Shown: positions 8,361 to 60,627, counted from the stretch's first letter. The stretch: DNA of 64,000 nt from a virus (IMGVR_UViG_3300025087_000034), one strand, 5' to 3'. Notes: generated by a model from the sequence alone, not told the origin. Translations and numbers: made by a program.

Positions 8361-8389
8361 TCTATATTAGACGTATTTAGGAGGTTAAT

Positions 8390-9596: not shown

Positions 9597-9609
9597 GGAG
9601 GTAATGACA

Positions 9610-10683
9610 ATGAGTATGGACCTAAGTAAGTTAAAAGAGTATGTTAGGGCGGTAGCTACGGCTGACGAATCTTCTAGGGAAGTTTTACTTAAGGAGTTTT
9701 GTGCCGCTATTAGAACCCCCATTCTTCAGGAAATCAAGTATCAGTCTATAGCTCGTGAGCTGTTTGCTGTTGAGGTTCTGGAGCCCGGTGCTCAGGCTGT
9801 GTATCCGGTAGCTGACGATTTTGAGCTTCCTGTGTGGGTACTACCTGGTCTTGGCAAAGTAGCCCATCACTTTGTAGAGGGGACCGGTGAGGACGTGTAT
9901 GTGCCCACCTTCCGTATTGCCACTTCTGCTGAGTGGAAGTTGGACTATGCTGTTCATTCCCGTGTGGATATCTTAGCACGAGCCATGCGTAAGGCTGCTG
10001 CCGGTGTAGCTGAGTATGAGGAAGAGTCTGCTTGGCGTGTTATAGTTCCTGCTGGGACCACCAACTTTGCTGCCACGGGTCTTTTGAAGGCGCGTAATGC
10101 GGCTATTTATGAGGTTCCGGTGGGTACTCAGGGCGCTGGCTATCTTTCTAAGGAGCTTGTAAACCGTATGATTATTGGTATGCAGCGTAATGGGCGTACT
10201 TTGACGGATTTGTGGGTTTCTCCGGAAGACGCTGGTGATATTCGTGAATGGACGGAGACTGATGTTGATCCAGTAACTCGTCGTGAGGTATTCCAGGCTG
10301 GTGGTATGGGCAGTATTTGGAATGTAGCTATGCATGTATTCCCTCAGCTGGGTTCTCCTGGTAAGTTTAATATTAATGATTCGACTTCTTCATATGGTAT
10401 ATTCAAGGATACTGCTGGCTCATATCAGGATTACGTGGTAGACCATGGTAACGTGGTTGATGCCAACGGCCAGGTAACCACTCCTGGTGATACCCAGATT
10501 TGGGGCTTTGATATGACCGCCAACGACTCTTTGGTAATGCCCGTCCGTGAAGAGTTGCAGATTTGGGACGACCCCACCCTGCATCGACGCCAACTCCAAG
10601 GCTTCTATGGATGGGAGTCCTGTGGATGGGGGTGTTTGGATTCTCGTATGTTGAGTGTGGGTGTAATCGATCGTTCTCTCTAA
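9610..10683 (+). CDS. Major capsid protein (HK97-type fold inferred)
   Basis: ~357 aa; SD AAGGAGG at 9595-9601 favours ATG 9610 over the track start 9556; position after protease and scaffold; followed by a strong hairpin. Confidence 0.8.
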   Translation: MSMDLSKLKEYVRAVATADESSREVLLKEFCAAIRTPILQEIKYQSIARELFAVEVLEPGAQAVYPVADDFELPVWVLPGLGKVAHHFVEGTGEDVYVPTFRIATSAEWKLDYAVHSRVDILARAMRKAAAGVAEYEEESAWRVIVPAGTTNFAATGLLKARNAAIYEVPVGTQGAGYLSKELVNRMIIGMQRNGRTLTDLWVSPEDAGDIREWTETDVDPVTRREVFQAGGMGSIWNVAMHVFPQLGSPGKFNINDSTSSYGIFKDTAGSYQDYVVDHGNVVDANGQVTTPGDTQIWGFDMTANDSLVMPVREELQIWDDPTLHRRQLQGFYGWESCGWGCLDSRMLSVGVIDRSL

Positions 10684-10794: not shown

Positions 10795-12459
10795 GTGTTT
10801 ATGAGCAATAATAAGGTACAAGAAAATAAAAAGTGTTTAAATGTGGATAGGAAGATAGCCTGGTGTAGAAATAAGCTGGACGAGATTGGTGTCTATATGG
10901 GGGCATTTAGTTATACCCTGGTTTCAGATAGTTATAAAAATAATAAAATTAAATTAGAGACCTTGTGTCCTAATGGCCATAGGTGGTTTGTTAGGTGGAG
11001 TGATTTTAGGGTTGGTAAGCGGTGTCCTTGTGAAACCAACAATATGCCAATAACTAAAGAGGTAGTGATAGAAGTTTTAAAGGTTTATGGTTTCGACCTT
11101 GTTTCCGATACCTATGTAGATAATAAAACACCCATAAAGATAAGGTGTACTCATGGGCATACCACGGAAATGAGTTATAGCCATTTCTATAATAGACCTC
11201 ATTGTAGTGAGTGTTGGAGAAAAACACTACCAACATATAGCAAGATAAAAGAACACTTTGTTGTTATGGGTTATACCTTATTGTCGGATAATTATGTGGG
11301 ATCTAAGAAACTTTTAAGATATAAGTGTAAAGAAGGACATATAAATTATATGTCTTGGAATAACTTTAGTAGAAAGTATAGATGCCCAGACTGTGCTAAT
11401 AATGCTTTATTAACTATACCTTTTTTGAGGGAAGAGTTTGGTAAAAGGGGATATACGTTAAATTCAGATATATATGAGGGCAACAAGAAAAAGTTGGACT
11501 GTACTTGTCCTTTGGGACATAAATGGTCTGTAAGTTGGAATTGTTTTAATCGTCCACAAGAATGTCCGAGGTGTAATAGAATGTCTTCAAAACCAGAACG
11601 TGAGATTAGGGATTTTGTTATTTCTTTATTAAGTGAAGAAGAAGTAATATGTAATGATAGGGAAACTATAGGTCCTTATGAATTGGATATTTTTATTCCC
11701 GCGAAAAAAGTTGCTATAGAATTTTGTGGTCTTTATTACCATTCCGAGGTCTCCGGAGGCAAGACGAACCGATATCACTATGATAAAATGGTAGCTTGCA
11801 ACCAGAAGGGCATAAGGCTTCTAGTAGTGTTCGAAGATGAATACACCAATAGAAAGGAAGTAGTTCTTTCAAGAATACAGAACGCAATAGGTGTTGGACT
11901 AAAACGAGTATACGCACGACAGTGTGAAATACGAGAAATAGATTCAAAAACAGCAAATGCATTTTTGTTAGAATTTCACTTACAAGGTAAAAGTAATTCA
12001 ACTAAAAGGTGGGGTTTATATTATAAGGATTTATTGGTAGCTGTACTTACGGCAGGGTTCCCCGCTCGCGCTCATACGTCGGGCGGGAAACGGGTTCTTG
12101 AAATAAAGCGGTTCGCTTCTAGGGGTGGGTATAGTATTGTAGGCGGAGCGTCAAAGTTGTTTGGCAAAGCTAAGGAGTTTGCTATAGAGCAGGACTTTGA
12201 GGTGATTAAGAGCTATTGCGACAGACGCTATGAGTCACTTCGGCCCGTCTACGAGCAGCTGGGATTGGTAATGCAATCATACACTAAATATACGCCTCAC
12301 TATATTAGTCCTGATTATAAAGTACGGGTCCGCAATCAAGGATTGAGAAAAACTCCGGAAGAAAGACTCACTGGAAAAAGTGAGTGGGAGCTTAGGAGAG
12401 AACAGGGCTACGATCGCATATTTGATTGTGGACATAGAACATATGTTATGGAGCTCTAG
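10795..12459 (+). CDS. Repeat-array endonuclease: 4 CxxGH..CxxC repeats + PD-(D/E)xK nuclease + GNAT-like C-terminal domain (Hef-like homing endonuclease)
   Basis: Repeats such as CPNGH..WSDF..RCPC; ELDIFIPAKKVAIEFCGLYYHSE nuclease; FHLQG...RFAS...VGGASKLF...SYCDRR C-terminal domain as recalled for Hef-type phage endonucleases. Confidence 0.7.
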   Translation: MFMSNNKVQENKKCLNVDRKIAWCRNKLDEIGVYMGAFSYTLVSDSYKNNKIKLETLCPNGHRWFVRWSDFRVGKRCPCETNNMPITKEVVIEVLKVYGFDLVSDTYVDNKTPIKIRCTHGHTTEMSYSHFYNRPHCSECWRKTLPTYSKIKEHFVVMGYTLLSDNYVGSKKLLRYKCKEGHINYMSWNNFSRKYRCPDCANNALLTIPFLREEFGKRGYTLNSDIYEGNKKKLDCTCPLGHKWSVSWNCFNRPQECPRCNRMSSKPEREIRDFVISLLSEEEVICNDRETIGPYELDIFIPAKKVAIEFCGLYYHSEVSGGKTNRYHYDKMVACNQKGIRLLVVFEDEYTNRKEVVLSRIQNAIGVGLKRVYARQCEIREIDSKTANAFLLEFHLQGKSNSTKRWGLYYKDLLVAVLTAGFPARAHTSGGKRVLEIKRFASRGGYSIVGGASKLFGKAKEFAIEQDFEVIKSYCDRRYESLRPVYEQLGLVMQSYTKYTPHYISPDYKVRVRNQGLRKTPEERLTGKSEWELRREQGYDRIFDCGHRTYVMEL

Positions 12460-33772: not shown

Positions 33773-33827
33773 CAAGTTAGTATTATATATATAGTTAGTG
33801 CCCTGTTGGTTACTAAGGAGGTCTTAT

Positions 33828-35063
33828 ATGTGTCGAGTAATATCTTCAGGTCATAATCTTGCCACATGTTTTCCCGATGTTCTCCGTTTGTGGGATTATG
33901 ACACTAATGAGGATGGTCCTGAGTTTTATATGCCAAAAACAGGGAGAAAGGCTTGGTGGTTACATTATACGGACGGCGGGGTTTTGCACAGGTGGAGAGC
34001 CAGAGTTTGTGATGTAGTTAAGAGAAACTGCCTTCAAGAAAAAAGTACTCTTGGGTGTCCATATTGTGTAGGTAAGTCTGTTGGTTTTGGTAATGATCTT
34101 GTTACAACGCACCCGTATTTAGCGGAACAGTTGTCTGTATGTCGTAATGGGTTTGGTTCGGAATCTTGCACACAAGGCTCTCATAAAAAGGTTTGGTGGT
34201 GGCATAGGACCGGGGGTGGGGTTTTGCATGAGTGGAGGGCTTCTATTTATAGCAGGGCTCTAGACGACAAGGGGTGCCCTTATTGTAAAAATCAGCTTGT
34301 TGGTTATGGAAATGATTTAAAATCTTTACGCCCAGATATTGCTAAAGACTGGGATTTTGATAGGAATGATAGGGGGCCAGAGAGTTATGTACCCAAGTCG
34401 GGTAAGGCTGTTTGGTGGGTGCATACGACAGACGAGGGGGAAATACATAGGTGGAAGGCCATAATAAAAAATAGGGTCAGCAATAAAAGTAGGTGCCCCT
34501 ACTGTTCTGGTAGAGAGCCAACTTTTGTCCACAATTTAGTTGTTTTGTATCCAGTTTTGGTATATAATGAGTGGGATTTTGAAAGGAATAAGAAAGGACC
34601 AGAGCAGTATACCCCAAAGTCAGGTAAAAAAGTCTGGTGGAAGCATTTTTGTGAGAAAACAGGGGAGCAGCATAGGTGGAAAGCAATTGTTTGTAGTAGG
34701 ACCTTGAACAGCACGGGGTGCCCTTACTGTAAGAACGGTCCTATATCTAAGGCCTCTGGTTGTTGGTTGGATACGTTAGGTATTCAAAACATTCATGGGG
34801 TAACAAGGGAAGTTAGTTTAAATGTAGGTACTAAGTTTTTTAGGGTTGATGGTTTTAATCCTGAAACCAAAACTGTTTATGAGTTTCTTGGAAACTATTG
34901 GCACGGTAATCCGTCTATGTTTGGTTCAGATGAACTAAATAAAACAGTAGGCAAGACTTTTGGTCAACTTTACCAAGGGACCATGGAAAGAATTAATTGT
35001 CTAGAAGAAGCAGGGTACAAGGTATTTTATATTTGGGAGAAGGATTTTAATGAGAGATTTTAA
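33828..35063 (+). CDS. Repeat-array endonuclease (4 DUF4379-like repeats + DUF559/Vsr-like nuclease)
   Basis: Same architecture as 926-2212; SD AAGGAGG favours ATG 33828. Confidence 0.75.
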   Translation: MCRVISSGHNLATCFPDVLRLWDYDTNEDGPEFYMPKTGRKAWWLHYTDGGVLHRWRARVCDVVKRNCLQEKSTLGCPYCVGKSVGFGNDLVTTHPYLAEQLSVCRNGFGSESCTQGSHKKVWWWHRTGGGVLHEWRASIYSRALDDKGCPYCKNQLVGYGNDLKSLRPDIAKDWDFDRNDRGPESYVPKSGKAVWWVHTTDEGEIHRWKAIIKNRVSNKSRCPYCSGREPTFVHNLVVLYPVLVYNEWDFERNKKGPEQYTPKSGKKVWWKHFCEKTGEQHRWKAIVCSRTLNSTGCPYCKNGPISKASGCWLDTLGIQNIHGVTREVSLNVGTKFFRVDGFNPETKTVYEFLGNYWHGNPSMFGSDELNKTVGKTFGQLYQGTMERINCLEEAGYKVFYIWEKDFNERF

Positions 35064-37093
35064 TGTCGGTGCAGTTTATGCCAAAAATTAAATATCCTTA
35101 TTCGTTTGTAAAGGATTTTATAGAAAGTTTTGGGTACAAGCTATATACTGATGAGGAAAGTTACGAGAATGTAACTACCCCGCTGCTAGTAGCGTGCAAG
35201 AAGGGGCATGTACATACCACTAGTTTTAACCATATTTATGGAGGCGGGGCGAAATGTCGTGAGTGTAATAAAATAGGAATAGCTAGAGTTATAGAGGAGT
35301 TTTCTAAGGTTGGCTATACTGTTTTATCTGAAAATTATAAGAATCAGTATACCAGAATAAAGTACTCTTGTGATAAGGGGCATGTTAATTTTACTACTTG
35401 GAATAGTTTTCAGAGTATGCGCAGGTGCCCCGAGTGCGAAAAAGAGCCTTACGACAATATTGTTAAGGCATTCAAGGATAGGGGATATGAGGTATTATCT
35501 TCTTTAGAAGAGTACGATTTAGTTGGTAGCCATTTCAAGTTTCGTTTTATATGCCCAAACGGGCATAGATCGTTTATGACCTATAGTAATTTTAAGAAGC
35601 CCACAGAGTGCGGTTTATGTTCTAAGACTAGAAAGAAGACGTATGAAGAAGTGGAAAAGAGGTTTAGGGCAGCGGGGTTTTTATTGGATGAGGGAGACTA
35701 TGTAAACCAGGACACTGATATGTCTTGTTTTTGTACTAACGGTCACCAAAATAGTACTTCGTTGTATAGGCTTCCTGGTTATTCGTGTAAAGAATGTGAC
35801 AGGGAGGTTTTTTTAAGGGAGCAGGATAGACTTCTTATTTTGGGTTTGATTTTAAGTGAGGAGAGAGATATACATAGCCAGCTTAAGGTTGAGTGTTTTG
35901 TTTGTGGTAGTATATATTGGCGGTATTTTCCAGAGGTTACTAGGTTGAGGGCTTGTTCTTGTTGTGAACAAGAGGCAGAATCTTATAAAAACCTTGTGGA
36001 GCTTTTGCCAATAGGGTTTAAAATGAGGACGGGTATGTGGGTTGGGTCTGATAACACCTACGTAGTTGAGTGTGGTAGGGGCCATGTGGCCAGGCAGGCT
36101 TATCCTAATATAATCGGAAAGAGGGTTGGGTGTGCTGAGTGCTATGGTAATAAGCTTGTGGGAATAGATCGTGTTCGTGACTATATGGGTACTTTTGATT
36201 ATACGCTGCGTTCAGATACCTACGTAAATGCACAGGGAAAATTAGAATATGCATGTCCAAAAGGGCATATAAGACAGATGAGTTGGGATAATTTTTTTCA
36301 TGGAAAAAGGTGCCCAGAATGTAATCCTTCGGGTGTTTCTAGAGCAGAAAAGGAAGTTTGTTCTTATGTTATTTCCCTAATTGGTGAAGAAAATGTAATC
36401 CCAAATGATAGGGAACAAATAAAGCCGTACGAGTTAGATATTTTTGTACCGTCGAAAAATTTTGCCATTGAATATTGTGGACTATATTGGCACTCAGAAT
36501 TTTCCGGCGGGAAAGATAAATTCTACCATAAAATGAAATATGATATGTGTAAGGAGAAGGGAATTAAACTTTTCACACTATTTGAAGATGAATATATTAA
36601 TAAAAAAGATATAGTATTAAATATAATATCACAAGAACTAGTAGGGAGTAATATAGATTTTTCAAAATGTCAAGTAAAAGAAGTAGATGTTGAGGCGGCA
36701 AATAATTTTCATAATAAGTATAATCTTGATGGTGGTTGTGATATAAAATATTCTTTTGGTATGTATTTTAATGGTAATTTAATTAGTTGTATTTCTTTTG
36801 ATAGATATCTTTTTTTGGTGAGGTGTAGTAATATAAATGGTTGTTTTGACAGGCTTTTTTTGGCCGCCGAAAAAATTTTCGGGCGGAAGATAAAAATCAA
36901 AACCAACCTAAGATATGATCAACAAGAAGACACCTACATAAAATTAGGATTTAAAAAAGATAGGTATATAGATCCAACCCCGTTTAATCTAGACGGGGAG
37001 AAAAGATACATTAGTACAGACCTAGACCTTAAAGAAGAAGAATCAGACAGGGTCTGGGACTGTGGTTTCCAGTTGTATATTAATAATGCTTAA
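35063..37093 (+). CDS. Repeat-array endonuclease: ~7 CxxGH/CxxC repeats + Hef-like nuclease with divergent C-terminal domain
   Basis: ELDIFVPSKNFAIEYCGLYWHSE nuclease; paralogue of 10795-12459; TAATG-coupled to the upstream nuclease gene. Confidence 0.7.
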   Translation: MSVQFMPKIKYPYSFVKDFIESFGYKLYTDEESYENVTTPLLVACKKGHVHTTSFNHIYGGGAKCRECNKIGIARVIEEFSKVGYTVLSENYKNQYTRIKYSCDKGHVNFTTWNSFQSMRRCPECEKEPYDNIVKAFKDRGYEVLSSLEEYDLVGSHFKFRFICPNGHRSFMTYSNFKKPTECGLCSKTRKKTYEEVEKRFRAAGFLLDEGDYVNQDTDMSCFCTNGHQNSTSLYRLPGYSCKECDREVFLREQDRLLILGLILSEERDIHSQLKVECFVCGSIYWRYFPEVTRLRACSCCEQEAESYKNLVELLPIGFKMRTGMWVGSDNTYVVECGRGHVARQAYPNIIGKRVGCAECYGNKLVGIDRVRDYMGTFDYTLRSDTYVNAQGKLEYACPKGHIRQMSWDNFFHGKRCPECNPSGVSRAEKEVCSYVISLIGEENVIPNDREQIKPYELDIFVPSKNFAIEYCGLYWHSEFSGGKDKFYHKMKYDMCKEKGIKLFTLFEDEYINKKDIVLNIISQELVGSNIDFSKCQVKEVDVEAANNFHNKYNLDGGCDIKYSFGMYFNGNLISCISFDRYLFLVRCSNINGCFDRLFLAAEKIFGRKIKIKTNLRYDQQEDTYIKLGFKKDRYIDPTPFNLDGEKRYISTDLDLKEEESDRVWDCGFQLYINNA

Positions 37094-49100: not shown

Positions 49101-50873
49101 TATGGTAGGGATGTCTCGATGTCCCCTGCTGGTCCCCACTTTGACCCAAGGACGGGGGAATTAACTAATGTGGTTGGGAGGCTTAGGGGCGAGCAGGGGG
49201 CTTTGCCTCTTAATTTACCGGGGGTGCAGGCATTACCTGGTGGGGCTACTCGTAGTTTTAATGCCCTAGATGTTTCTAATACCCAATTGACAGAGCAGGC
49301 ATTTACTAGGAGGCTTCGGTACGAGAGGTCTAGAGGGGCGCCCAGAGAGGAGTTACTTAAGTTAGAGAATGAGCTGCTCGAGTTGAGGCTTACACTAATA
49401 GATGATCTGGCTGACATAAAAAACTATTGGAAAGTTTCTGAGCGGTATTCGGAGGTTTCCAGGAGGGGGGCTTCAAGGGGGGACTTGTGGGAAGCTGAGG
49501 AAGTTGCTGACCTGGCTCATAGGAGGGCTTTTAATGAGTTATATTTAGATCTTGAGCTTCTAAAACCAACAAGGGAAGGTGTCCCAGGACCTTCTCCATA
49601 CGCAGAATCTTTAGGAAGGGCACGAACAATAAGGGCATTTGTTTCTGGCGGAGCTGTTTCTGGTTCGGGGGGGCCTATGTCGGATAGGGTTCCTGCGCTC
49701 CTTAGTAATGGGGAGTATGTAATACCGGCTGGGGCTGTTAAGAGATATGGGTCAGCTTTCTTTGATAGCTTAGCTAAGCCTAAAAAGTTGGCTAGTGGTG
49801 GTGTGGTAAGCGGTGGTATGTCTTTAGGGTTTGAACCTCGTGTGCTAGAGGGTTTAACCACAGCTATAAAAATAGCTACAGATGAAATAATGATAAATCT
49901 TAGGGGGGTACAGCAAAGAAGCCTCGACCTTATAGGTAATAGGGGTGTTTTACAAAGGCCTGTGAGTGAGGTAGCAGGAGGTTCTGCTTCTGGTGGTGCG
50001 GATATAGTTAGTGTATTAAAGGAGGTATTGCTTTCAGCTAGCCCATCTATGACTGGGGCAACTCCAGAGCAGCGAGGTTGGCAAGCCACGGGTAAGTCTA
50101 GTGGGTATATGGTGAATGTAGCTGGTATGGGGGCTGTTTCTGAAGACCAAATGAAGTCTTTGGTTGGTCCTAAAGGAGCAGTTAATGTTACTGGTCTTGG
50201 TGGGACGTCTGTGTCTGAGGTAGATCGTCTTATGGGTGGGGGAAAGTGGAAGCCTGCTGGGGAAGGTTCTATGGGTATGTCAGAACAGGATTTTCGTAAG
50301 TATATGGAAAGAGAGCACTTGCAGGCAGATGTAGAATTGGCGGCTGACGAGGCTACTTCTAAGTTGCCGGGGTTTAAACAGCCAGGCCAGGAGGCTGTTA
50401 GTGGCGGGGCTATGGATATAGATGCTTTGGCAGAAAGAATATACACAGCTATTGTTGATGGTTTTAAGGGAGGGGAGATAAGACTAGACCAGGACAGCTT
50501 GGTTTCTTTGCAGAAGGCTGTTGCAGCTGGTGTGGTGGAGGGCTCTTCTTCTATCAAGGAAGCCATTGTTGAGGCCCTGCCTTCTTTACAGGCTAGTGCT
50601 GGAGGCAGTGTGGGTCCTGCTTTACAGGGTAAGCTTGATGAATTAGAGGGTGGCATGCTTATAGTAACGGATGGTTTGGTACAATTAAAAACAGATATGA
50701 CCACAACCATAAATGAAAGATTTAGTGATATGGAAACACAGCTTACATCAAATGTAGACAGGACGTATAAACCAGAAATAGTTAGTATAAAGGGAGAATT
50801 GCAAAGAATTGAGGGGTTTGTTAAGCAAGTATCGGCTATGGCCCATGCGTCGTTATCGAGGTCCACTGATTAA
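40110..50873 (+). CDS. Tape measure protein (TP901-type core), 3587 aa
   Basis: Core motif VDAWNEVANRNAVTEGTLTDALKKAGSAA..VGV.FDELNGMITAIG..TRQPG.EIGTSL; hydrophobic segments; two GG...G....DRVPA.L..GEYV motifs. Confidence 0.92.
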   Translation: MAGSKNKYIFDLLFNISTQGGTKGGGIGAGGGGTSAAATELNAVLSSLVKTLKDFQRGLETASSGASHTGGGAGPTVNTGEAGKAAKSAVDATTEALKSVAEEAQKAAEQEAKVASKEAGAALGDVADSFKTLRENIGKHLRASEATVVSSAVSQYRTAARAMSSQVSELNRSSVTAGDMGLNKVMDKVRSSLQGVDVEVKLHLDNLVNMLKERGAGGIVAPAIVESSILNLRRTLSSKNIGSGSEAKRASAVVESFGREVIRKIQDNLVTELDSLASTFDLAVGAGQETKARQLSSKILESSQTLISFMEAVARAGGTGVINPAVMSKGGRGVAPLVTPEASFLFRKPSNLEAGLSSTQQEALVLLRSMKEVPDVTERVRQAFALLYKDAGGNLIKLRQNFGVVVEAMKTSPQFQLLDRREAALAAKTLDQYAKALETISISGGDKIRIPRFITELAGSTGKAALQGINALRDKIAAAAKISGGARQEKVLEVEDTAGGLQKYLVSLTKAGNTADKVRVQVRQLNKELSAKEGLTLAFRRVAMWGSAAGIVYGGVAMLRSAVKTMKDVEFGVASLGKVMVEADKDFAAFSENVIKFAMKMAKSYGASLAEVIGAMQIFAQQGFEMIDVQRLTEAAVLAANVTVLNQKDAAEGLTSALHQFGIEASNAIQIVDAWNEVANRNAVTEGTLTDALKKAGSAAASVGVNFDELNGMITAIGTATRQPGKEIGTSLRFIFQRTVRPETVSELAKVGVITKDLQGNFRGFMPILIELADRWDTLTRSQRLSVATALGGARQYNSVLALLNNFGLVLKASEESSNSQGSAMRENARIMETAEKVFAKLRASADNLAVSFGNTLLPVMKGVATGGEVFLNVINAIPDALKGVLAGIAVASIGFTRFASSIDMALTSSLAAGGGSIAGVFSSMAKGLAGGPKNQAFLENVSKMGKLDKMSQSMKEIPDYSAAAGKHLAGMGGIVKDLNGNIIYNVESMSKLQLATRGAHLEMSTLAANGAVGLAALNSPINKVLVGLGKFGKLVFVYLFTGLGNLAGLLPVVGKGLRDLFSTMVAGRIATLGFASSLVLFAGVAAAIGVGIAALVKWGKESGSAGRVAEEAVSSELAKREEVLRTINKQLSMYKQLEVQSKKAERGAQKTEDERIKEAVNTGVYKSSSFERLELEKAKQKHALPMAMVSPGLIEGFDKFGNVITKASYAFDDFTSSAIKAQAQLVAFSRLKIAEGYSKDAIKAFDKLTGSMDDMVAVKGFLSPQTEGLGMLVAGMDLWAESVDKVISKELELKTALSQVETQISRIPKQAGVEAFGVFGFNESVSKALDLAAGRLSPAYSKTYGKTLGGGDILNKMFLQSRGVSGAGYTGEETASKLKQRNILEKPIDAFLKEVSEARRKMRGGELLIFEEGSSFGFDQAVIRVNQGGEAVVEAIDSKGRDIKVSLFEALASARNESIKVFDLSQLRQQASESLLRVKRQIAGAGAGLFSFPGKIDFGVKFNFELGDTDRLQKVGKEATSMLLEVFKSQTKYNSAVREYQKTLKQQGVAGVEGVISTQGKQQLDIQAVTISTITNIVRLASEVEKLGSSLDKAVFKLEEARIGDRVEAEFATVFGSTAGLADKLTITLPKTFGQLSPAERVVQLSPEFAIGMRSMDRLVTTLKAQILSTRMFSGRDIPRMFKDFTDKDRDVLSSEIERLGGDEKTATQNTLLLSIRNTNKEGFDALLNALGVQTKEVKQQEKKNPVDKLVDAFSVNLASVLVSKGVGPVSVGDIAERAMAVSRRGAGVGGQPMVSEPEVFKGIKDVLRSAFEKGVAPEELYGKVLSFWEKLYKEAQEREKLVRGAGGMASPVSRQGIAQARASSENLEVIRSFIDNLKELGSEKFKGIYERVLAQRSVGAGGVGAIDISKAAQTLRIQGEKAGFKETERLVGATDELLVAKLKEAQISKEASQQIALFATRLTSYSDSLIQGFENIPLKVGEILSAGMLNAPIAGAAKGVFAPKIQLGKSVDELSPMESLVKKFPEVRGVVIAELERQEALKVFSQQQQKYLQAEVELQRELNSVQDPQGRKVLVTLQERFNNLHISTASAVGAANDNMAPFIESLTEMSRLEQVAKNLEDIVKGLKKIKDLRFDETSLDIAFGKHPLSPTPGVFGQPAGLNKYERDLYSIEQKGKGPHTLEEFSKLAIQKKQVEFARKEALIQYTQGKENQKLAQEVDAAKRAMGILWDAQYKGVEGLNPLISMLKSELSSAGEVISTMGGKKEFRGVPGLFGAREEIAKVQEAVKEREFAVQRKVVMQPLEDLTATGNKLLEEIKGLLDTKGGEDEKKAQQIEEGALKGTGGIVAEGVKNLSMLGDNLSKVLSGGVDNFRTMFDAIDALSQGNLKSFGTAIDTVTKSLAGIVAAIPAPQNVPAGRPDFSASVEKQASGGKISGPAGIDRVPAMLTSGEYVIPKASVDKFGVSFMDSLKNGKLPGFNRGGFVRKYAQAGFVSKLTDDEKDYIYDFYKADAQAREIIEGSLSKPVGTKETNIFANLGKVSKDREELLGESAGGGGGFMRGPNGEVIAMGDIGRIRRNVFSPAEKISKQPTRDWITSKQLIDQYDSLKSKEELQELAYSVKNAGSLLGPEKDFVESLRQGLDPGLVFLGQMQGQFGEGNKIIQGSLEKPASTTISELKKKELEAKKLVGATLGNIKGFDPREVLDKERSKTLESLKNLGGTIGGFIGKQFDPDDAMIKEMTKGEDTWKDFGKGVGRGSMGLVSDVLSGDILEKTVKGAIDFSKVAAKIGWEQVTTSPIETAIKGEKSTALKLWEGIWGAPLGQKGEMLGGLLPSLLLPGAGVKVAGKAGNLKGGLKSRKKVTGKKADITEAQWLDIVRAFKEEGLFVDPLLKSGTITGGGSRVGPNVGGLSKVMVDRGQLYGQVGMGKLMAPDLAPVKGRMSRYMGEARKIVGDVGVPRGESKGNLIGYVETLLSKGVSKDEITNMLASTQRMSRGYGRDVSMSPAGPHFDPRTGELTNVVGRLRGEQGALPLNLPGVQALPGGATRSFNALDVSNTQLTEQAFTRRLRYERSRGAPREELLKLENELLELRLTLIDDLADIKNYWKVSERYSEVSRRGASRGDLWEAEEVADLAHRRAFNELYLDLELLKPTREGVPGPSPYAESLGRARTIRAFVSGGAVSGSGGPMSDRVPALLSNGEYVIPAGAVKRYGSAFFDSLAKPKKLASGGVVSGGMSLGFEPRVLEGLTTAIKIATDEIMINLRGVQQRSLDLIGNRGVLQRPVSEVAGGSASGGADIVSVLKEVLLSASPSMTGATPEQRGWQATGKSSGYMVNVAGMGAVSEDQMKSLVGPKGAVNVTGLGGTSVSEVDRLMGGGKWKPAGEGSMGMSEQDFRKYMEREHLQADVELAADEATSKLPGFKQPGQEAVSGGAMDIDALAERIYTAIVDGFKGGEIRLDQDSLVSLQKAVAAGVVEGSSSIKEAIVEALPSLQASAGGSVGPALQGKLDELEGGMLIVTDGLVQLKTDMTTTINERFSDMETQLTSNVDRTYKPEIVSIKGELQRIEGFVKQVSAMAHASLSRSTD

Positions 50874-53617: not shown

Positions 53618-54214
53618 TTGCCAGGATGTGGTTGTAATATAGTAGGTTTATTAAATATTAATTATCAAGGTATTATCTCCGCCTCGATCAACGGCGGCAC
53701 ATCGATCGAGGTGGCCGATGATGGTACTGTATTGATTGGTGCAACTATAAACAATCTGTCATTAAGTGCTTATCCATTTCCTCCTGGTGGTGATTTTTAT
53801 TTAGGTGTTACTTGTCCTTCTTCAGCACAGGCAAGTATAAATTGGTTGCAAAAGTATGATTGTTTTGAAAATAAGACTCATTTCATTCCAAAGGCGGGCG
53901 GAAAGGCCTCTATAACCGGCAGTAATATAGACGGTGTTACTCTTGGGTGTGACCCCGATATAGTGTCCTCGGCTTTTGATGCAAATGCTTCCGGTGGTCC
54001 TACATCACCCTATATAACTAACTATAGGCGCGATGGATTTAATTTGCGATTTTCCGGAACACCGATACCGATAAACAGTGGTTCTCCACAACCGTATAAT
54101 ATAGAATTGGGGGATGCAGGTATTTTGAAATGTTATTTACAGAGCTTTAGTTTGTCTGTATCTCCACCACAACCTGCTGTAGTTAACTACAGTTTTGTTT
54201 TTACTAACAATTAG
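53618..54214 (+). CDS. Putative tail-tip/distal tail protein (Cys-rich)
   Basis: 198 aa; C-terminal YLQSFSLSV.PPQPAVVNYSF beta pattern. Confidence 0.4.
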   Translation: MPGCGCNIVGLLNINYQGIISASINGGTSIEVADDGTVLIGATINNLSLSAYPFPPGGDFYLGVTCPSSAQASINWLQKYDCFENKTHFIPKAGGKASITGSNIDGVTLGCDPDIVSSAFDANASGGPTSPYITNYRRDGFNLRFSGTPIPINSGSPQPYNIELGDAGILKCYLQSFSLSVSPPQPAVVNYSFVFTNN

Positions 54215-54244
54215 ACTTTAGGGGTTTTTATAGGGGTTTTAAGT

Positions 54245-55309
54245 ATGTGTAGAAAATTTACATATGAAGAAGTCAAAGAGGCCTTTGAAGCTAGGGGGTA
54301 TACCTTGCTTAGTAAGGAATATATAAACTGTGATACAAAATTAGGGTACGAGTGTGTGGGGGGTCATTTCGGGGCCATGTCTTTTTACAGGTTTAAGGGT
54401 GGTACGAGGTGTCCTACTTGTGTAAGAAATAAAAAACTTACTTATGAGGAAGTTAAAGAGGCATTTGAGCTTAGAGGCTATGTTTTATTAAGTGATAACT
54501 ATGATAATGCTCAAACTAAATTAAGGTATAGGTGCCCAAAAGGGCACATTGGGTACACTACTTATGGTAATTTTTATCAGAAACATAGATGTCCTATTTG
54601 TTATCATGAGGAACGCAAATTTTCGTACGAGGAAGTTAATAAAAGTTTTACAGCTAGGGGCTATACGCTCCTTAGTTCAGACTATAAAAATAACAGCACT
54701 AAGTTAAATTATAGGTGTCGCAGGAATCATTTGGGGGCAATGCCCTATAGTCAGTTTTTGCGGGGGCATAATTGTCCAGAGTGTTATGCACAAGACTGTT
54801 ATTTAACTTACACGGATGTTAAGGAAGTCTTTGAAGCTAGGGGCTATGTATTGCTTAGTGACACATATATAAATACTAATACTAAGTTGAAGTATAAATG
54901 TCCAAACGGGCATATTGGGGCTATGTCTTATGGCCATTTTAGTCAAGGTAGTGATTGTCCAATTTGTGCGAGAAATTCCCACGTATCTAAAAGTTCTCAA
55001 CAATGGTTGGATTCTTTAGGCCTTCCCAAGGAAATGGGTATTAATAGGGAGGTTAATTTGAGGGTCGGGGGTATTAGGTTTAAGGTTGATGGTTTTGATT
55101 CAGAAACCAATACTGTGTATGAGTTTCTTGGTAGCTATTGGCATGGAAATCCAGCAGTGCACAGGCCGGATGAAATTAATGAGCGGTCTGGAAAAACCTT
55201 TGGTAAGCTTTATAAAGAAACTTTTGAACGGTTTGATAGTATAAAACAAGCTGGCTATAACATAAAATATGTTTGGGAAGGGGATTTGGGCACTGTGTAT
55301 AGTTACTAA
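54245..55309 (+). CDS. Repeat-array endonuclease: 4 x ~61-aa CxxGH/CxxC repeats + DUF559/Vsr-like nuclease
   Basis: YEEVK..F..RGY.LLS..Y.N..TKL.Y.C..GH.G.M.Y..F..G..CP.C x4; KVDGFD..TNTVYEFLGSYWHGNP. Confidence 0.78.
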   Translation: MCRKFTYEEVKEAFEARGYTLLSKEYINCDTKLGYECVGGHFGAMSFYRFKGGTRCPTCVRNKKLTYEEVKEAFELRGYVLLSDNYDNAQTKLRYRCPKGHIGYTTYGNFYQKHRCPICYHEERKFSYEEVNKSFTARGYTLLSSDYKNNSTKLNYRCRRNHLGAMPYSQFLRGHNCPECYAQDCYLTYTDVKEVFEARGYVLLSDTYINTNTKLKYKCPNGHIGAMSYGHFSQGSDCPICARNSHVSKSSQQWLDSLGLPKEMGINREVNLRVGGIRFKVDGFDSETNTVYEFLGSYWHGNPAVHRPDEINERSGKTFGKLYKETFERFDSIKQAGYNIKYVWEGDLGTVYSY

Positions 55310-55339
55310 ATCTTTTACTAAGAGAATAAATAATTAAAA

Positions 55340-55684
55340 ATGATACAAATAGAAAAATATAGAATAAGAGGTTCTGGAATTCAACCGAAATCGTCTGGTT
55401 GTCCTTCGGGCGCCCCCCACATGTACTATTTTCAGTCGTTCGGGGCCGAACGTACAATAGTAGATGTGTACGAAGCTAAAACTATACTCTTAAAATCAGA
55501 AGATTTTCAAGGGGTTAAATATGGGGATGAAGAAAGTCCAATTTTTAGAAACTCTACATTTGTACGTGCTTCTTATTCTGGTAGACCATTAAGAAATACT
55601 GACGGAACATTGGTGTTTACAGCTCAAGAAGAACATATAATGGAATTTGTTGACGAGGACGAGGTTCCTGGTTGGAGCGACTAG
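55340..55684 (+). CDS. Hypothetical protein (tail-tip cluster)
   Basis: 114-aa ORF between two nuclease genes. Confidence 0.55.
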   Translation: MIQIEKYRIRGSGIQPKSSGCPSGAPHMYYFQSFGAERTIVDVYEAKTILLKSEDFQGVKYGDEESPIFRNSTFVRASYSGRPLRNTDGTLVFTAQEEHIMEFVDEDEVPGWSD

Positions 55685-55691
55685 ATTTAAA

Positions 55692-56609
55692 ATGGGTAAA
55701 AAGAAAACATTAGAAGAAGTTGAGCAGGATTTTTTGGTACGTGGTTATACACTGCTAAGTGATAGTTATTTAAATAATAAGACTAAATTATGCTATTCAT
55801 GCTCGGAAGGGCATACCAACTCTATGACTCGTAGCGAGCTTATACAAGGAAGCCATTGTCCAACGTGTAATATAGAGAGACAAAAGGTTCCGTTAGCAGT
55901 TATAAAGGAAGCTTTTGATAGTGTAGGGTATAAACTGTACGAGCAGCCTTATATTAATAGTGGTACTAAGTTAGATTATACTTGTAATAAGGGTCACCAT
56001 AGGTCTATGACTTGGAGTAATTTTAGAAATGGCCAGAGGTGCTTGGTGTGTTTTTGGGAATCAATGCGGCTGGATATTGGATATGTTAGGGAGGTTTTTT
56101 TAGCCCGGGGGTATACTTTAGTAAGCGATACTTACGGGAATGCTTTTTCTAAGTTAGATTATATATGCCCAAAGGGCCATTTTGGTAGTATGCGGTTTAA
56201 CGATTTTCAACAAAAGCATGATTGTCCTATTTGTGCAGAGGATTCGTCTGTTTCTAAAATATCACAGGTGTGGTTGGATTCTTTGGGCGTTCCTAACAAA
56301 TTAGGCCAATATAGGGAAGTATGGAAAAAAATAGGGGGAAGGCTACTAAAGCTAGATGGTTTTGTAGAAAAAACTAATATGGCGTATGAATTTTTGGGTG
56401 ATTACTACCATGGTAACCCAACCAGATTCAACCCCGGCGAAATGAACAAAACTGCTGGAAAGACCTTTGGTGAGTTATTTGATACTACGATGGAGAGGTT
56501 AGACCTGATAAGGAAAGAGGGTTTCAATCTTGTTTATATATGGGAAAAAGATTTTGGTTATATTGTTAATAAAGACGAGCTAGTGAGATATAAGCACACA
56601 TGCCCCTAG
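55692..56609 (+). CDS. Repeat-array endonuclease: 3 x ~61-aa repeats + DUF559/Vsr-like nuclease
   Basis: Same family as 54245; probable start ATG 55692 (track start 55647 overlaps the upstream gene); KLDGF...AYEFLGDYYHGNP. Confidence 0.78.
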   Translation: MGKKKTLEEVEQDFLVRGYTLLSDSYLNNKTKLCYSCSEGHTNSMTRSELIQGSHCPTCNIERQKVPLAVIKEAFDSVGYKLYEQPYINSGTKLDYTCNKGHHRSMTWSNFRNGQRCLVCFWESMRLDIGYVREVFLARGYTLVSDTYGNAFSKLDYICPKGHFGSMRFNDFQQKHDCPICAEDSSVSKISQVWLDSLGVPNKLGQYREVWKKIGGRLLKLDGFVEKTNMAYEFLGDYYHGNPTRFNPGEMNKTAGKTFGELFDTTMERLDLIRKEGFNLVYIWEKDFGYIVNKDELVRYKHTCP

Positions 56610-56869
56610 TATGTTCAACCAGCGTAGTTAGTTATGAACAATTTGAATTTATAGATTGTAGTACACTTAATGTTTCATATAATGCTAGAGGTTTAGCTTC
56701 TGTAAGTTTTTCTGTAGTGTCTAGCAAGAACAGTATGGATAATAACTATACCAGTCTTACTATTGGGGAAGTTGATTTTAATGGTTATTTAGATAATGTT
56801 CAACTGTCTGTAATTCCAGGCACGACCGTATATGTATATCAAATAAGCCTACAAGCATTTGGCTGTTAA
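56600..56869 (+). CDS. Hypothetical protein (tail-tip cluster)
   Basis: 89 aa, beta-rich; overlaps the upstream nuclease stop. Confidence 0.55.
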   Translation: MPLVCSTSVVSYEQFEFIDCSTLNVSYNARGLASVSFSVVSSKNSMDNNYTSLTIGEVDFNGYLDNVQLSVIPGTTVYVYQISLQAFGC

Positions 56870-56883
56870 ATAGGAGAACTGCT

Positions 56884-57042
56884 ATGAGGTGTGGAGGATG
56901 CGGGAAAAGACCGCCAAAAAATAATTCGCGGCCACAAAAAAAGACCCCAAAAGAAAGTTCCCTTAAAAAGTATGCTTTCCTACACCCAAATCAAAAAGCA
57001 TTACTAGAGTCTATAGAAGCAGAAGAAAACAAGGAACAATAA
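56884..57042 (+). CDS. Small basic hypothetical protein (52 aa, below track cutoff)
   Basis: MRCGGCGKRPPKNNSRPQKKTPKESSLKKYAFLHPNQKALLESIEAEENKEQ*; SD AGGAG; abuts ATG 57043. Confidence 0.55.
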   Translation: MRCGGCGKRPPKNNSRPQKKTPKESSLKKYAFLHPNQKALLESIEAEENKEQ

Positions 57043-57744
57043 ATGGCTGTAATTATAGGAAATAGTACAACTGTAGTTAGTACCTTGTTCCCAGATGGGG
57101 GTGTGGTAAGTGTTAATTTTGGTCTACAAGCACAAATAAACAGGTTGTGGCAAATAGGTTCGTTCTCTCCTTATGATACATACTCGCAGAAACAAAAAAC
57201 ACTCTCTCTTACTTTATATGGAAAGAAAGAGGACGGGACAGGGGGAAGTACCCCAATAGATTTAACACCAGCAACCTCTTGTAGTGACGCTGAGAGTTTT
57301 GAAGTAACAATCAACCCTGCAAGTTGTGGAACTTTTATTTCCCCATTCTCGGCTTTATGGTTTCCAAATTCTTATTCATACTCAAAAGAAAATATGGGAT
57401 TTGGTCAAGAGAATTGGGGATTTACAACCAAACCAGAATTGGATTCATATACTGGGGAGATTGTTTTTATTCGTGGTATAGCTTTTGGTCAAGTTTTAAT
57501 TGGGGCAGGGATGATGACAGAGACAGACGTTGGCGTTGTTACTAATGACGCGGATAGTCGGGATAGCAACGGGGAATACATAGAAGGAGAGAGCGGGAGT
57601 GTTTCTGCTGGGGAAACTTCTGTGGGTGAGTATTCTGTGCAGAGGGAAGTAATTTTTTCTGGTGTTGGGGGTTCTGTATTAATAAAAGATGGCTACAAGG
57701 GCTCCGCTACTTGTAGTATACCCTATACACCTGTTTATATTTAA
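57043..57744 (+). CDS. Putative tail-tube-like/tail-tip protein
   Basis: 233 aa; SVNFG.....NRLWQIG...TLSLTLY resembles tube-fold proteins. Confidence 0.4.
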   Translation: MAVIIGNSTTVVSTLFPDGGVVSVNFGLQAQINRLWQIGSFSPYDTYSQKQKTLSLTLYGKKEDGTGGSTPIDLTPATSCSDAESFEVTINPASCGTFISPFSALWFPNSYSYSKENMGFGQENWGFTTKPELDSYTGEIVFIRGIAFGQVLIGAGMMTETDVGVVTNDADSRDSNGEYIEGESGSVSAGETSVGEYSVQREVIFSGVGGSVLIKDGYKGSATCSIPYTPVYI

Positions 57745-57757
57745 AGGGGGTTTAAGC

Positions 57758-58855
57758 ATGTGTAGAAAGCTTACGTACGAAGAAGTTAAAGGGACTTTTG
57801 AAGCTAGTGGTTATACCCTACTTAGTAAAGAATATATAAGTAATTGTACTAAGTTGGATTATAGATGTTCTGAGGGGCATTTTGGTTCAATGACGTACAG
57901 CAGTCTTCAACAGGGACACTCTTGTCTTATTTGTAGTATAAAGAATAAAAGACTTAGCTATAAAGATGTTAAAAAAATGTTTGAGAGTAGGGGATATGTA
58001 TTGCTTAGTAAGGAGTATATAAATAGTGGTACTAAGTTGGATTATAGGTGCCCTAGAGGCCACCTTGGGTCAATGGTTTATAATCATTTTCAGGATGGGA
58101 GAAAGTGCCCTGTTTGTGTTGGTGAGGATCGAAGGCATTTTTATGAAGAGATTAAGGTTGTTTTTGAGTCACGAGGCTATAAATTGATTAGTAGTGAATA
58201 TAAGGACAATAAAACTAAGTTAGAGTATGTGTGTCCAAAGGGGCATTTAGGATCTATGACCTTTAGTAATTTTCAACAGGGAAGGAAGTGTCCTGTTTGT
58301 TCTGTTGATAATATTAGGCTTTCTTATGAAGAGGTTAAGGAAGCTTTTGATAACAGGGGTTATACGTTACTTAGTACTGAGTATGTAAATTCTAATATTA
58401 AGTTGGATTATAAGTGTCCAAAGGGGCATTTAGGTGCTATGAAATATAATAGTTTTCAGCAGGGAAAGTCTTGTCCCATTTGTTCATTAAACTACTCTGT
58501 TTCCAAGGTTTCCCAAGTATGGCTTGATTCTTTAGGGGTGTCAAATGAAAGGGGCGTTAGTAGAGAAGTTACTTTGAAAATTGGAGAAAACAGGTTCAAA
58601 GCAGACGGTTTTGATCCAGAAACCAATACGGTTTATGAGTTTCTAGGTACTATTTGGCACGGAGACCCCAGGGTGTGTAAGCCTTTAGATATAAATTATG
58701 TCAATAAAAAGACCTTTGGTCAACTTTATCAGGAGACCTTTGACCGTATAAAATTAATAGAAGAAGCAGGATACAGAGTAATTTATATTTGGGAGTCAGA
58801 TTTTAGATCCCAAAATTTTTCTGGCGGGGAAAAAGAATTAATCCAACATGCTTAA
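57758..58855 (+). CDS. Repeat-array endonuclease: 4 x 61-aa repeats + DUF559/Vsr-like nuclease
   Basis: Probable start ATG 57758 after AAAGGGGG; KADGFDPETNTVYEFLGTIWHGDP. Confidence 0.78.
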   Translation: MCRKLTYEEVKGTFEASGYTLLSKEYISNCTKLDYRCSEGHFGSMTYSSLQQGHSCLICSIKNKRLSYKDVKKMFESRGYVLLSKEYINSGTKLDYRCPRGHLGSMVYNHFQDGRKCPVCVGEDRRHFYEEIKVVFESRGYKLISSEYKDNKTKLEYVCPKGHLGSMTFSNFQQGRKCPVCSVDNIRLSYEEVKEAFDNRGYTLLSTEYVNSNIKLDYKCPKGHLGAMKYNSFQQGKSCPICSLNYSVSKVSQVWLDSLGVSNERGVSREVTLKIGENRFKADGFDPETNTVYEFLGTIWHGDPRVCKPLDINYVNKKTFGQLYQETFDRIKLIEEAGYRVIYIWESDFRSQNFSGGEKELIQHA

Positions 58856-59258
58856 TAAATATATTTTAGAATTACATTGGTTATATACAGATTTAATAAA
58901 TGATGAAACCTGTATATTGCACCAACCCTACTTTTCAGGTCCAGCATTAAAGATAGCACAAAGAATAGAACCAAATAATAACATAGTTATAGACCTTTCA
59001 GGTCAATATAGTTCATTAATTTCTAGTCATTATTTTGTAACACTCTTTTGGAAGGAAGTTAGGTACTATGACGAGCGTGCTTATTTGGGAGACGCAAGAT
59101 TTTTCGGCGGGCTAATAAATAAGTTGTCAAAACTGACAAAGAATGATTATATATTAATTGATACTTCAAAACATGAAGAAAATAAACATATGTATAATTT
59201 AGTATATGAAGGAAGAATCTATACACAAGATAAGAAGGATAAAGTAATTAATGGTTAA
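58848..59258 (+). CDS. Hypothetical protein
   Basis: 136 aa; overlaps the upstream nuclease stop. Confidence 0.55.
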   Translation: MLNKYILELHWLYTDLINDETCILHQPYFSGPALKIAQRIEPNNNIVIDLSGQYSSLISSHYFVTLFWKEVRYYDERAYLGDARFFGGLINKLSKLTKNDYILIDTSKHEENKHMYNLVYEGRIYTQDKKDKVING

Positions 59259-59514
59259 AATTCATGGACATACTTCCAATGTTGGATACACATATAAGAG
59301 ATGTCCTTATAGTACTTGGTATAAAGAAAACTACTATGATATAGGTGAGTTAGGAAATTCAACAAATCCCAACTTACCCGTTGTAACAGGTGATCATCCT
59401 AGTACTGATGGGACGATGAACATGTACAATAGGGGTGGGGTACCTGGATGGATGTGCTGGGATGATAATTGTCCGTTTTTCTTGTTGCAGGGGGTTAGAT
59501 ATACAGAGGTTTAG
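59251..59514 (+). CDS. Small Cys-containing hypothetical protein
   Basis: 87 aa; RCPY...WMCWDDNCPF. Confidence 0.55.
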   Translation: MVKIHGHTSNVGYTYKRCPYSTWYKENYYDIGELGNSTNPNLPVVTGDHPSTDGTMNMYNRGGVPGWMCWDDNCPFFLLQGVRYTEV

Positions 59515-59529
59515 ATAAAGGAGCGTTTT

Positions 59530-60627
59530 ATGGGTAGAAAGCTTACTTATGAAAAGGTTAAAGATGTTTTTGATAATAGGGGTTATACGTTGCTTAGTAG
59601 CGAGTACGTGGATAATACAACTAAGCTAGACTATAAGTGCCCAAGGGGCCATTTAGGGTCTATGATTTATAATAGTTTTCATCAGAATCGTGGGTGTCCT
59701 ATTTGTGATATGGAGAATAGAAAACCTACTTATAGTAAGGTTAAACAGTATTTTAAGGACAGGGGCTATACGCTGTTTAGTATGGAGTATAGAAATAATA
59801 ATACTAAGTTGGAGTATAAGTGCCCTAGGGGGCATTTAGGGGCCATGACTTATCGTAATTTTCAGCAGGGGGGTAGTTGCCCTGTCTGTTCTATAGAGGA
59901 TAGAAGGCTTTCTTATGAAGAGGTTGAGCGAGCATTTGCTGACAGAAGGTATAAGCTACTCAGTACTGAGTATGTAAATTGTTTTACCAAGCTAGACTAT
60001 AGATGCCCAAGGGGACATTTGGGAGCTATGTTTTATAATTGTTTTCAGCAGGGGTGTAGTTGTCCTGTTTGTTCGGTCGAGGATAAGAGACATTCTTACG
60101 ATGAGGTTGAGCGGGCATTTGCTGACAGAGGGTATAGGCTACTCAGTACAGATTATTTAAATAGTAAAACCAAGCTAGAATATAGGTGCCCAAAAGGGCA
60201 TTTAGGGTCTATGATTTATGGTAGTTTTCAACAGAGCAGTGATTGTCCTATTTGTTCGAAGATTTCCTTCGTTTCTAAAGTGTCACAAAAATGGTTGGAT
60301 TGTTTGGGTTTGGCTAAAGAAATGGGAATTAGCAGAGAGGCTAATTTGCAGATAGGGGACCATCGTTTTAGGGTAGATGGTTTTGATTCTAAAACAAGCA
60401 CTGTTTATGAGTTTCTTGGAGACTATTGGCATGGTAATCCATCCATGTTTAAACTTGACGATATGAACGACAGGGTAGGAAAGTCTTTCGGTCAACTTTA
60501 CCAAGAAACCATTGATCGTATTAAACTATTAGAGGACGCAGGGTACAAGGTAGTTTATATATGGGAGAAAGATTTCAGAGAACAGGAACTTATGGCTGGG
60601 AAACTAACCTACACAAACATAAAATAA
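59530..60627 (+). CDS. Repeat-array endonuclease: 4 x 61-aa repeats + DUF559/Vsr-like nuclease
   Basis: Very regular repeats; RVDGFDSKTSTVYEFLGDYWHGNP; SD AAGGAG. Confidence 0.78.
   Translation: MGRKLTYEKVKDVFDNRGYTLLSSEYVDNTTKLDYKCPRGHLGSMIYNSFHQNRGCPICDMENRKPTYSKVKQYFKDRGYTLFSMEYRNNNTKLEYKCPRGHLGAMTYRNFQQGGSCPVCSIEDRRLSYEEVERAFADRRYKLLSTEYVNCFTKLDYRCPRGHLGAMFYNCFQQGCSCPVCSVEDKRHSYDEVERAFADRGYRLLSTDYLNSKTKLEYRCPKGHLGSMIYGSFQQSSDCPICSKISFVSKVSQKWLDCLGLAKEMGISREANLQIGDHRFRVDGFDSKTSTVYEFLGDYWHGNPSMFKLDDMNDRVGKSFGQLYQETIDRIKLLEDAGYKVVYIWEKDFREQELMAGKLTYTNIK

Follow-up and report, generated by a model that had tools for sequence, protein, structure and literature searches.

Can an array of small zinc-binding repeats, placed in front of a nuclease, read DNA through a simple residue code? 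The question is raised by the viral sequence IMGVR_UViG_3300025087_000034, of which a stretch of 64,000 nucleotides (the window) was analysed; the window is part of a jumbo phage contig of ~258 kb from groundwater metagenomes. Between positions 54245 and 60627 it carries four open reading frames (ORFs), here called homing endonuclease genes (HEGs) A to D, the products of which combine tandem zinc repeats with a nuclease domain. The initial annotation had singled out two adjacent polar residues in each repeat, described them as hypervariable and proposed a natural recognition code akin to that of zinc-finger nucleases (ZFNs) or of the repeat-variable diresidues (RVDs) of transcription activator-like effectors (TALEs). 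The four ORFs are very likely to be homing endonuclease genes of the free-standing kind, which join a CapR-type array to a Vsr/EDxHD-like nuclease, with a predicted activity that would rely on DNA recognition by many residues per module. The broader half of the proposal, nucleases guided by an array of zinc modules, has thus held up, since the repeats are PF21817 modules, the nuclease has the Vsr/EDxHD fold, and CapR is a documented sequence-specific DNA binder (PMC8096241).

The four ORFs lie where they had been annotated, and the conserved repeat scaffold had been read correctly. Once the proteins are cut at their CxxC motifs the repeats (four, three, four and four in HEGs A to D) align without gaps at a period of 60–61 aa. 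Their scaffold is YEEV..F..RGY.LLS..Y.N..TKL.Y.C..GH...M.[YFW]xx[FL]..G..CP.C, with the zinc ligand pattern C-x3-H...C-x2-C; module 1 of HEG B has an arginine where the other modules have an aromatic residue. The CapR homology domain of Pfam, PF21817, scores above its gathering threshold of 24.2 bits in all four ORFs, with E-values ranging from 1.6e-16 (HEG A, four stretches, 60.7 bits) to 2.3e-06 (HEG B, 28.1 bits) and values of 8.4e-15 (55.1 bits) and 3.5e-14 (53.2 bits) for HEGs C and D, so that chance cannot account for the repeat. Weaker matches to DUF4379, a 'probable treble clef zinc finger', overlap those to PF21817, and all four proteins belong to PHROG families 559 and 681 (annotated as HNH endonuclease and endonuclease). 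The suspicion that the family might already be catalogued has been borne out by Pfam, by PHROG and by a recent paper on phage homing endonucleases (PMC12350094). Repeat conservation was evaluated in a local set of 15 repeats and, over 58 columns, in a large set of 440 unique repeats, extracted from 118 homologues with a hidden Markov model (HMM). Of the predicted zinc ligands, C34, C53 and C56 never vary in the large set, while 407 of its 440 repeats have H38.

The AlphaFold2 model of the HEG D protein, built on an alignment of 32 homologues, contains the identical module fold four times. The module folds are confident (pLDDT 87.7) and their mutual arrangement is not, because the pTM is only 0.39. 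Each modelled module begins with a ten-residue helix and a two-residue strand, followed by a beta-hairpin, a one-turn helix, a loop, the CxxC motif and a further helix. The cysteine ends strand 1 of the hairpin and the histidine precedes strand 2, while CxxC opens the final helix, which continues into the linker; the model thus puts the predicted ligands on the hairpin and at the N-terminal end of a helix. A single-module model from 124 repeats (pLDDT 82.3) yielded neither a convincing homologue nor a DNA-bound template among solved structures with Foldseek and VIA-align, the closest being the trypanosome mitoribosome assembly factor 6sga_Fd (Z 5.0), and a sequence search of the PDB with the full-length protein returned nothing meaningful. 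Among the predicted Swiss-Prot structures, the same single-module model matches SPbeta YomD (TM 0.88) and the psbA intron 1 ORF of Chlamydomonas moewusii (TM 0.84), both of which come from mobile-element contexts. Neighbouring modules are 59–62 aa apart in 73% of cases, with a second mode at 65–66 aa, a fairly fixed spacing that would allow the modules to be arranged regularly on DNA.

The C-terminal ~115 aa of each HEG protein adopt the Vsr/EDxHD nuclease fold, a branch of PD-(D/E)xK. No Pfam model matches this domain. Residues 247–360 of the HEG D model superimpose on Vsr in its DNA complex (1cw0_A; Z 8.3, 105 residues, root-mean-square deviation 3.7) and on the catalytic domain of I-Bth0305I (3r3p_B; Z 7.0), and Foldseek assigns a probability of 1.00 to both 1vsr and 1cw0. 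At the level of sequence, a profile of 32 C-terminal domains finds 3r3p with an E-value of 0.011 and Vsr with ~0.35. The catalytic residues D40, E51, H58 and E103 (nuclease-domain numbering) lie in the motifs VDGFD (Asp), YEF (Glu), WHG (His) and IWE (Glu); they are kept in all four ORFs and in 27–32 of the 32 homologues, and their counterparts in the EDxHD family have been discussed (PMC3239194). A side observation concerns organelles. Among solved structures, the module and the nuclease domain alike are matched best by mitoribosome or assembly proteins of kinetoplastids and apicomplexans, which for the Vsr-like domain is 9g6k_Li (Z 9.2), and the top Foldseek match of the full-length model is 6yxx_E2 (305 columns). 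The two-part design of the HEG proteins may, on this hint, recur in some RAP-type RNA-binding proteins of organelles.

How variable, then, is the residue pair on which the proposed code depends? Every dipeptide listed in the initial annotation is correct, for the ORFs that begin at 54245, 55692, 57758, 59530, 10795 and 35063, and so is every four-residue string preceding TKL. The pair is polar, with N, S, G, D and H predominating, and it is variable; what does not stand is its distinctness. In the local set the two positions (columns 45 and 46) have entropies of 2.04 and 2.71 bits, and values of at least 2.42 bits are reached by seven other columns outside the linker, 32 (3.01), 57 (2.74), 58 (2.61), 48 (2.61), 29 (2.55), 10 (2.47) and 22 (2.42). 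In the large set the pair reaches 3.10 and 2.96 bits, approximately 13th and 19th of the 58 columns, behind columns 51, 10, 55, 39, 9, 27, 14, 40, 41, 49, 31 and 6, and at least 15 columns have an entropy of ~3 bits or more. Among the 1092 pairs of repeats that are 60–95% identical the two positions rank 6th and 7th in divergence (0.68 and 0.67), after columns 51 (0.80), 43 (0.74), 27 (0.70), 9 and 57. The variable columns are the exposed positions of every secondary-structure element, the N-terminal helix included. The pair itself occupies the second and third positions of the one-turn helix, which in module 1 reads Y47-N48-S49-F50-H51, and in the model is therefore exposed between two buried aromatic residues. 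The 204 gap-free repeats hold 62 types of dipeptide at a perplexity of 36, the commonest, NS, accounting for 11%, and the two positions are only weakly coupled (z 2.5, versus 5.8 for columns 48–49). A TALE-like organisation, with a near-identical scaffold that varies at one or two positions and draws on a small residue alphabet, is not what these repeats display: they are mutually ~40–70% identical and vary over at least 15 exposed columns. A two-residue code is thus unsupported.

Selection on the repeats, which had been suggested as a check, does not single out the pair either. Most pairs of repeats are saturated at silent sites, so that the ratio of non-synonymous to synonymous substitution rates (dN/dS) was pooled over the eight usable pairs (dS of ~1 or less); the patches were picked after their variability had been seen and the counts are tiny, which makes the values indicative only. 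The crude ratio is 0.64 for the pair, 0.68 for the wider face of columns 43–51, 1.4 for the patch before TKL, 0.56 for the exposed part of helix 1 and 0.19 for the scaffold. In the youngest duplicate, repeats 3 and 4 of HEG D (dS 0.41), both codons of the pair and the codons before TKL have changed, with a dN/dS of ~3 for the two patches that rests on only 3–5 substitutions. Exposed patches thus evolve fast, and relaxed constraint and diversifying selection would both fit these values.

Residue composition is the one guide to the side of the module that may face DNA. The exposed columns of helix 1 (5, 6, 9, 12, 14 and 22) contain 31–65% Asp or Glu; columns 26–29, 43, 48, 49, 51 and 52 contain 1–5% and are rich in K, R, N, Q, S and H, with the K29 and R52 columns ~77% basic. 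The pair columns are 11% and 15% acidic. This pattern points to the side formed by the hairpin, the one-turn helix and the knuckle as the probable nucleic-acid face, and the pair therefore probably lies on this polar and basic face or at its edge. That the zinc repeats of the four HEGs read DNA at all is probable by analogy with CapR, the capsid repressor of the PLE satellite, which in electrophoretic mobility shift assays recognises one particular piece of the ICP1 capsid promoter, discriminates between neighbouring probes of 30–100 bp and loses binding when its four conserved cysteines are changed to serine (PMC8096241). Among proteins with this domain, sequence-specific binding is on record for CapR only. 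The CapR domain is also found at the N-termini of ICP1 homing endonucleases (PMC8096241).

The genomic setting fits genes that have been inserted (Table 1). An Rfam scan of the window found no intron RNA, and the four genes are therefore regarded as free-standing. The tail-module gene order recurs in a distant relative (L009, IMGVR_UViG_3300012931_000049), where 11 homologues of the surrounding genes keep their order at 24–53% identity and all four HEGs are absent. The corresponding region of L009 (3477–11084) is devoid of any endonuclease gene and supplies the HEG-less junctions: there the 233-aa and 136-aa genes have homologues that are direct neighbours, and the same holds for the 87-aa and 303-aa genes. 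Judging from this conserved gene order, the four HEGs are therefore free-standing mobile insertions at intergenic positions between conserved tail and virion genes. Such intergenic, free-standing insertion is usual for phage HEGs.

Table 1. CapR-array nucleases of the window and the virion-module genes next to HEGs A to D (coordinates count from the first nucleotide of the window; L009 is the relative in which the four HEGs are absent)
Feature	Coordinates	Strand	Description
HEG A	54245..55309	+	354 aa; 4 CapR-like zinc modules ~54254-54967; Vsr/EDxHD-like nuclease domain 54971-55306
HEG B	55692..56609	+	305 aa from ATG; 3 CapR-like modules ~55701-56234; nuclease domain 56238-56606
HEG C	57758..58855	+	365 aa; 4 modules ~57767-58483; nuclease domain 58487-58852
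HEG D	59530..60627	+	365 aa; 4 modules ~59539-60255; nuclease domain 60259-60624; protein modelled with AlphaFold2
Conserved virion-module gene, 198 aa	53618..54214	+	adjoins HEG A upstream; left junction; L009 homologue 6563-7174, 33% identity
Conserved virion-module gene, 233 aa	57043..57744	+	between HEG B and HEG C; L009 homologue 8001-8678, 35% identity
Conserved virion-module gene, 303 aa	60689..61600	+	adjoins HEG D downstream; right junction; L009 homologue 9580-10533, E 2e-50
Paralogue E	10795..12459	+	554 aa; 4 CapR-like modules, nuclease core, extra C-terminal domain of ~200 aa
Paralogue F	35063..37093	+	676 aa; 6 recognisable modules with less regular spacing; nuclease core; extra C-terminal domain

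Two of the gene starts are ambiguous. HEG B could begin upstream at a TTG (55647), which would give 320 aa, the public gene call being 305 aa, and HEG C has a possible earlier start at 57689 (388 aa). Small ORFs of 114, 89, 233, 136 and 87 aa lie between the four HEGs. The whole stretch is located just downstream of a tape-measure gene encoding 3587 aa and upstream of fibre genes with Big_1 domains. The tape-measure ORF (40110-50873, + strand, PhageMin_Tail) is unusually long even among jumbo phages. None of ten neighbouring genes matched a PHROG family, the flanking tail genes had no blastn match among isolated phages, and viral contigs searched with the 303-aa flank gene yielded nothing. The G+C content over 54000–60000 is 0.356–0.382, slightly below that of much of the remaining window (up to 0.47), which is consistent with foreign or selfish genes.

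The way in which such enzymes would work can be outlined as follows. The CapR-like modules would line up side by side along the DNA and jointly recognise a long target in a tolerant manner, as is typical of phage homing enzymes, and the Vsr-like domain would cut the DNA nearby. During co-infection, repair from the HEG-carrying genome would then copy the gene into relatives that lack it. The predicted contact face would be made up of the patch that precedes TKL, the last part of strand 2, the one-turn helix on its exposed side, where the pair lies, and the loop that precedes CxxC; since it would span several patches, specificity would arise from many residues per module, in the manner of zinc-finger and NUMOD binding, rather than from a two-residue code.

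Several observations weigh against this account. A search for near-identical contigs lacking one of the four HEGs found that all such contigs carry all four, and recent mobility, gain or loss is undocumented for that reason. The contrast between presence and absence is with one distant relative at ~35% protein identity. The geometry between modules is not confidently predicted (pTM 0.39), and because no solved structure closely resembles the module its DNA-facing side is deduced from composition only. The zinc finger of I-TevI serves as a distance ruler and not as a DNA reader (discussed in 10.1101/2023.03.23.533998), and by analogy some of the HEG modules could be structural.

The evidence on the pair has to be set against two other interpretations of what its variability means. 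The one proposed originally, that each module reads a short subsite mainly through the pair, perhaps together with the patch before TKL, in a transferable and reprogrammable manner like TALE RVDs, draws on the exposure of the pair between two buried aromatics, its richness in N, S, H and D, its 6th and 7th ranks in divergence among moderately close repeats, the codon changes between repeats 3 and 4 of HEG D with their local dN/dS of ~3, and the regularity of module spacing. Several points stand against it: at least 12 other columns are equally or more variable, the many dipeptides do not amount to a small alphabet, the scaffold diverges between repeats in a way that TALE repeats do not, the pooled ratio of the pair is not above that of other exposed patches, N, S, D and G are classic helix caps in first-turn positions too, and no DNA-bound structure of the module was found. 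A code of this kind is therefore very improbable. The opposite interpretation holds that the variability reflects only relaxed constraint on exposed residues together with helix capping and contains no specificity information, affinity being provided mostly by the conserved basic residues K1, K8, K29 and R52 and by the nuclease domain. Variable columns do track exposed positions everywhere, including the acidic helix 1 that is unlikely to face DNA, hardly any patch has a crude dN/dS above 1, and I-Bth0305I, the EDxHD enzyme that has been characterised, recognises its site with an even and tolerant specificity profile (PMC3239194). On the other hand, paralogues that are 54–65% identical occupy different loci of one genome and so would, if they home, have different targets; the depletion of acidic residues is selective to one face and not general among exposed residues; and CapR tells neighbouring probes apart. 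Relaxed constraint is the more serious of these two interpretations, and rather unlikely all the same.

It could also be asked whether the four genes still home. Some or all of them may have been domesticated, either as regulators of the late or virion operon or as nucleases directed against competing phages or satellites. CapR is itself a domesticated derivative (PMC8096241), and co-option of the ICP1 Odn type is documented (10.1101/2023.03.23.533998). All contigs of this phage population carry the four genes unchanged, and the genes are packed tightly into the virion operon with overlaps of 8–10 nt onto the next gene. A regulatory role would resemble that of CapR or the autorepression exerted by I-TevI. 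However, whereas CapR has no nuclease, the four HEGs have kept theirs entire with its catalytic residues, L009 does not have them in its syntenic region, and the presence of several array nucleases within 64 kb, six of them with CapR modules, looks like selfish proliferation. The chance that domestication accounts for the locus is consequently slight, and homing by free-standing nucleases with multi-residue recognition remains the preferred reading.

Proteins of this type are found beyond the four HEGs. The other two CapR-containing nucleases of the window, paralogues E and F, match PF21817 (E 3.7e-11 and 43.5 bits for E, 30.7 bits for F) and belong to PHROG 3339, 'homing endonuclease'; paralogue E also matches PHROG 559 with an E-value of 7e-100. 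Their extra domain of ~200 aa shows a weak match to XF1762 (NCBIfam, E 8e-05, below the cut-off) and another to the PHROG 'Mom-like DNA modification protein', and the proteins encoded at 926-2212, 12468-13916 and 33798-35063 (+ strand) have no useful match in NCBIfam. A search of a large protein database yielded 259 relatives, in which the arrays are also fused to HNH (PF01844) and other nuclease domains. With tblastn, relatives were detected in 308 records of isolated phages, among them T5-like and SPO1-like phages, ICP1 and Campylobacter phages; many are annotated as homing endonucleases, and the Campylobacter phages harbour 12–13 copies each. The closest paralogue (P0004, L007 8001-9257) is 65% identical and has five modules. 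Its neighbourhood is one of replication and repair genes (PhoH, RNase T, Rad52 and ClpP), with another DUF4379 protein nearby, and this different gene context rules it out as an orthologue that could reveal conserved specificity residues. L007 was obtained from a sample that also yielded one contig of the window phage and may represent another part of its genome or a co-occurring relative. Module shuffling was addressed with a maximum-likelihood tree of 30 repeats, in which 16 of the 27 forks are open and the duplication that gave rise to repeats 3 and 4 of HEG D stands.

The architecture has close parallels in the literature. Phage homing endonucleases with three to five CapR/DUF4379/DUF723-like domains of ~60 aa and a C-terminal EDxHD/Vsr-like domain have been described, and profile HMMs find thousands of proteins that combine a CapR array with such a nuclease, a large and previously unrecognised outgroup of the EDxHD/Vsr family (PMC12350094, Nucleic Acids Res 2025). 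The four HEGs have three or four N-terminal modules, a Vsr/EDxHD domain of the expected size (~100 aa) and intact catalytic residues, and thus agree with that set in architecture, module size and number, and nuclease type; in both cases the hosts are jumbo phages with many paralogues. What differs is that the four HEGs are free-standing between genes, with no intron found by Rfam. Repeated zinc domains of the CapR/DUF723 type are common in T5orf172 homing endonucleases, where they are arranged as modular 'beads on a string'; target recognition has been argued to emerge from these modules jointly, and recombination between the repeats is documented (10.1101/2023.03.23.533998). CapR of the Vibrio cholerae PLE and the T5orf172 HEGs of ICP1 share the PF21817 module with the four HEGs, together with its tandem arrangement, proposed modular recognition and repeat recombination. 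The nuclease of the ICP1 HEGs is T5orf172, of the GIY-YIG superfamily, CapR has none, and that of the four HEGs is Vsr/EDxHD-like; the ligands also differ, CxxC...CxC in CapR versus C-x3-H...C-x2-C here. I-Bth0305I, the EDxHD prototype (3R3P, PMC3239194), and the Hef-type phage enzymes have the catalytic Vsr fold and its conserved Asp, Glu and His in common with the HEGs. I-Bth0305I binds DNA by two NUMOD/HTH-like (helix-turn-helix) motifs, whereas the HEGs have zinc modules, and the sequence similarity is marginal (profile E as above). With the C2H2 arrays of ZFNs and with TALE repeats the HEG proteins share a logic, that of small DNA-binding modules in tandem with a nuclease and variable polar residues on one face. 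The folds are unrelated, the HEG module being a treble-clef-like CHCC unit with an extra N-terminal helix, and unlike C2H2 and TALE modules it neither uses a small residue alphabet nor confines its variation to a few positions.

The architecture, then, has already been described, and the four HEGs are ordinary further members of a recently recognised and very large family of selfish nucleases. The value of this locus is descriptive: it places the family, as free-standing insertions, amid a packed module of tail genes, and it provides a per-column map of the varying positions of the module and of its likely DNA face. There is a small chance, slightly above that of domestication, that the CapR-like modules are true modular readers, each of which would contact a fixed short subsite via its acid-poor face. 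Should this be the case, arrays on Vsr-like, T5orf172 or HNH nucleases would constitute a third, zinc-based and re-programmable DNA-targeting scaffold, the recognition rules of which could be learnt from thousands of natural members, and modules that read one subsite each would offer genome engineers a compact natural scaffold of interest. The data argue against a simple two-residue rule, and a multi-residue rule is plausible.

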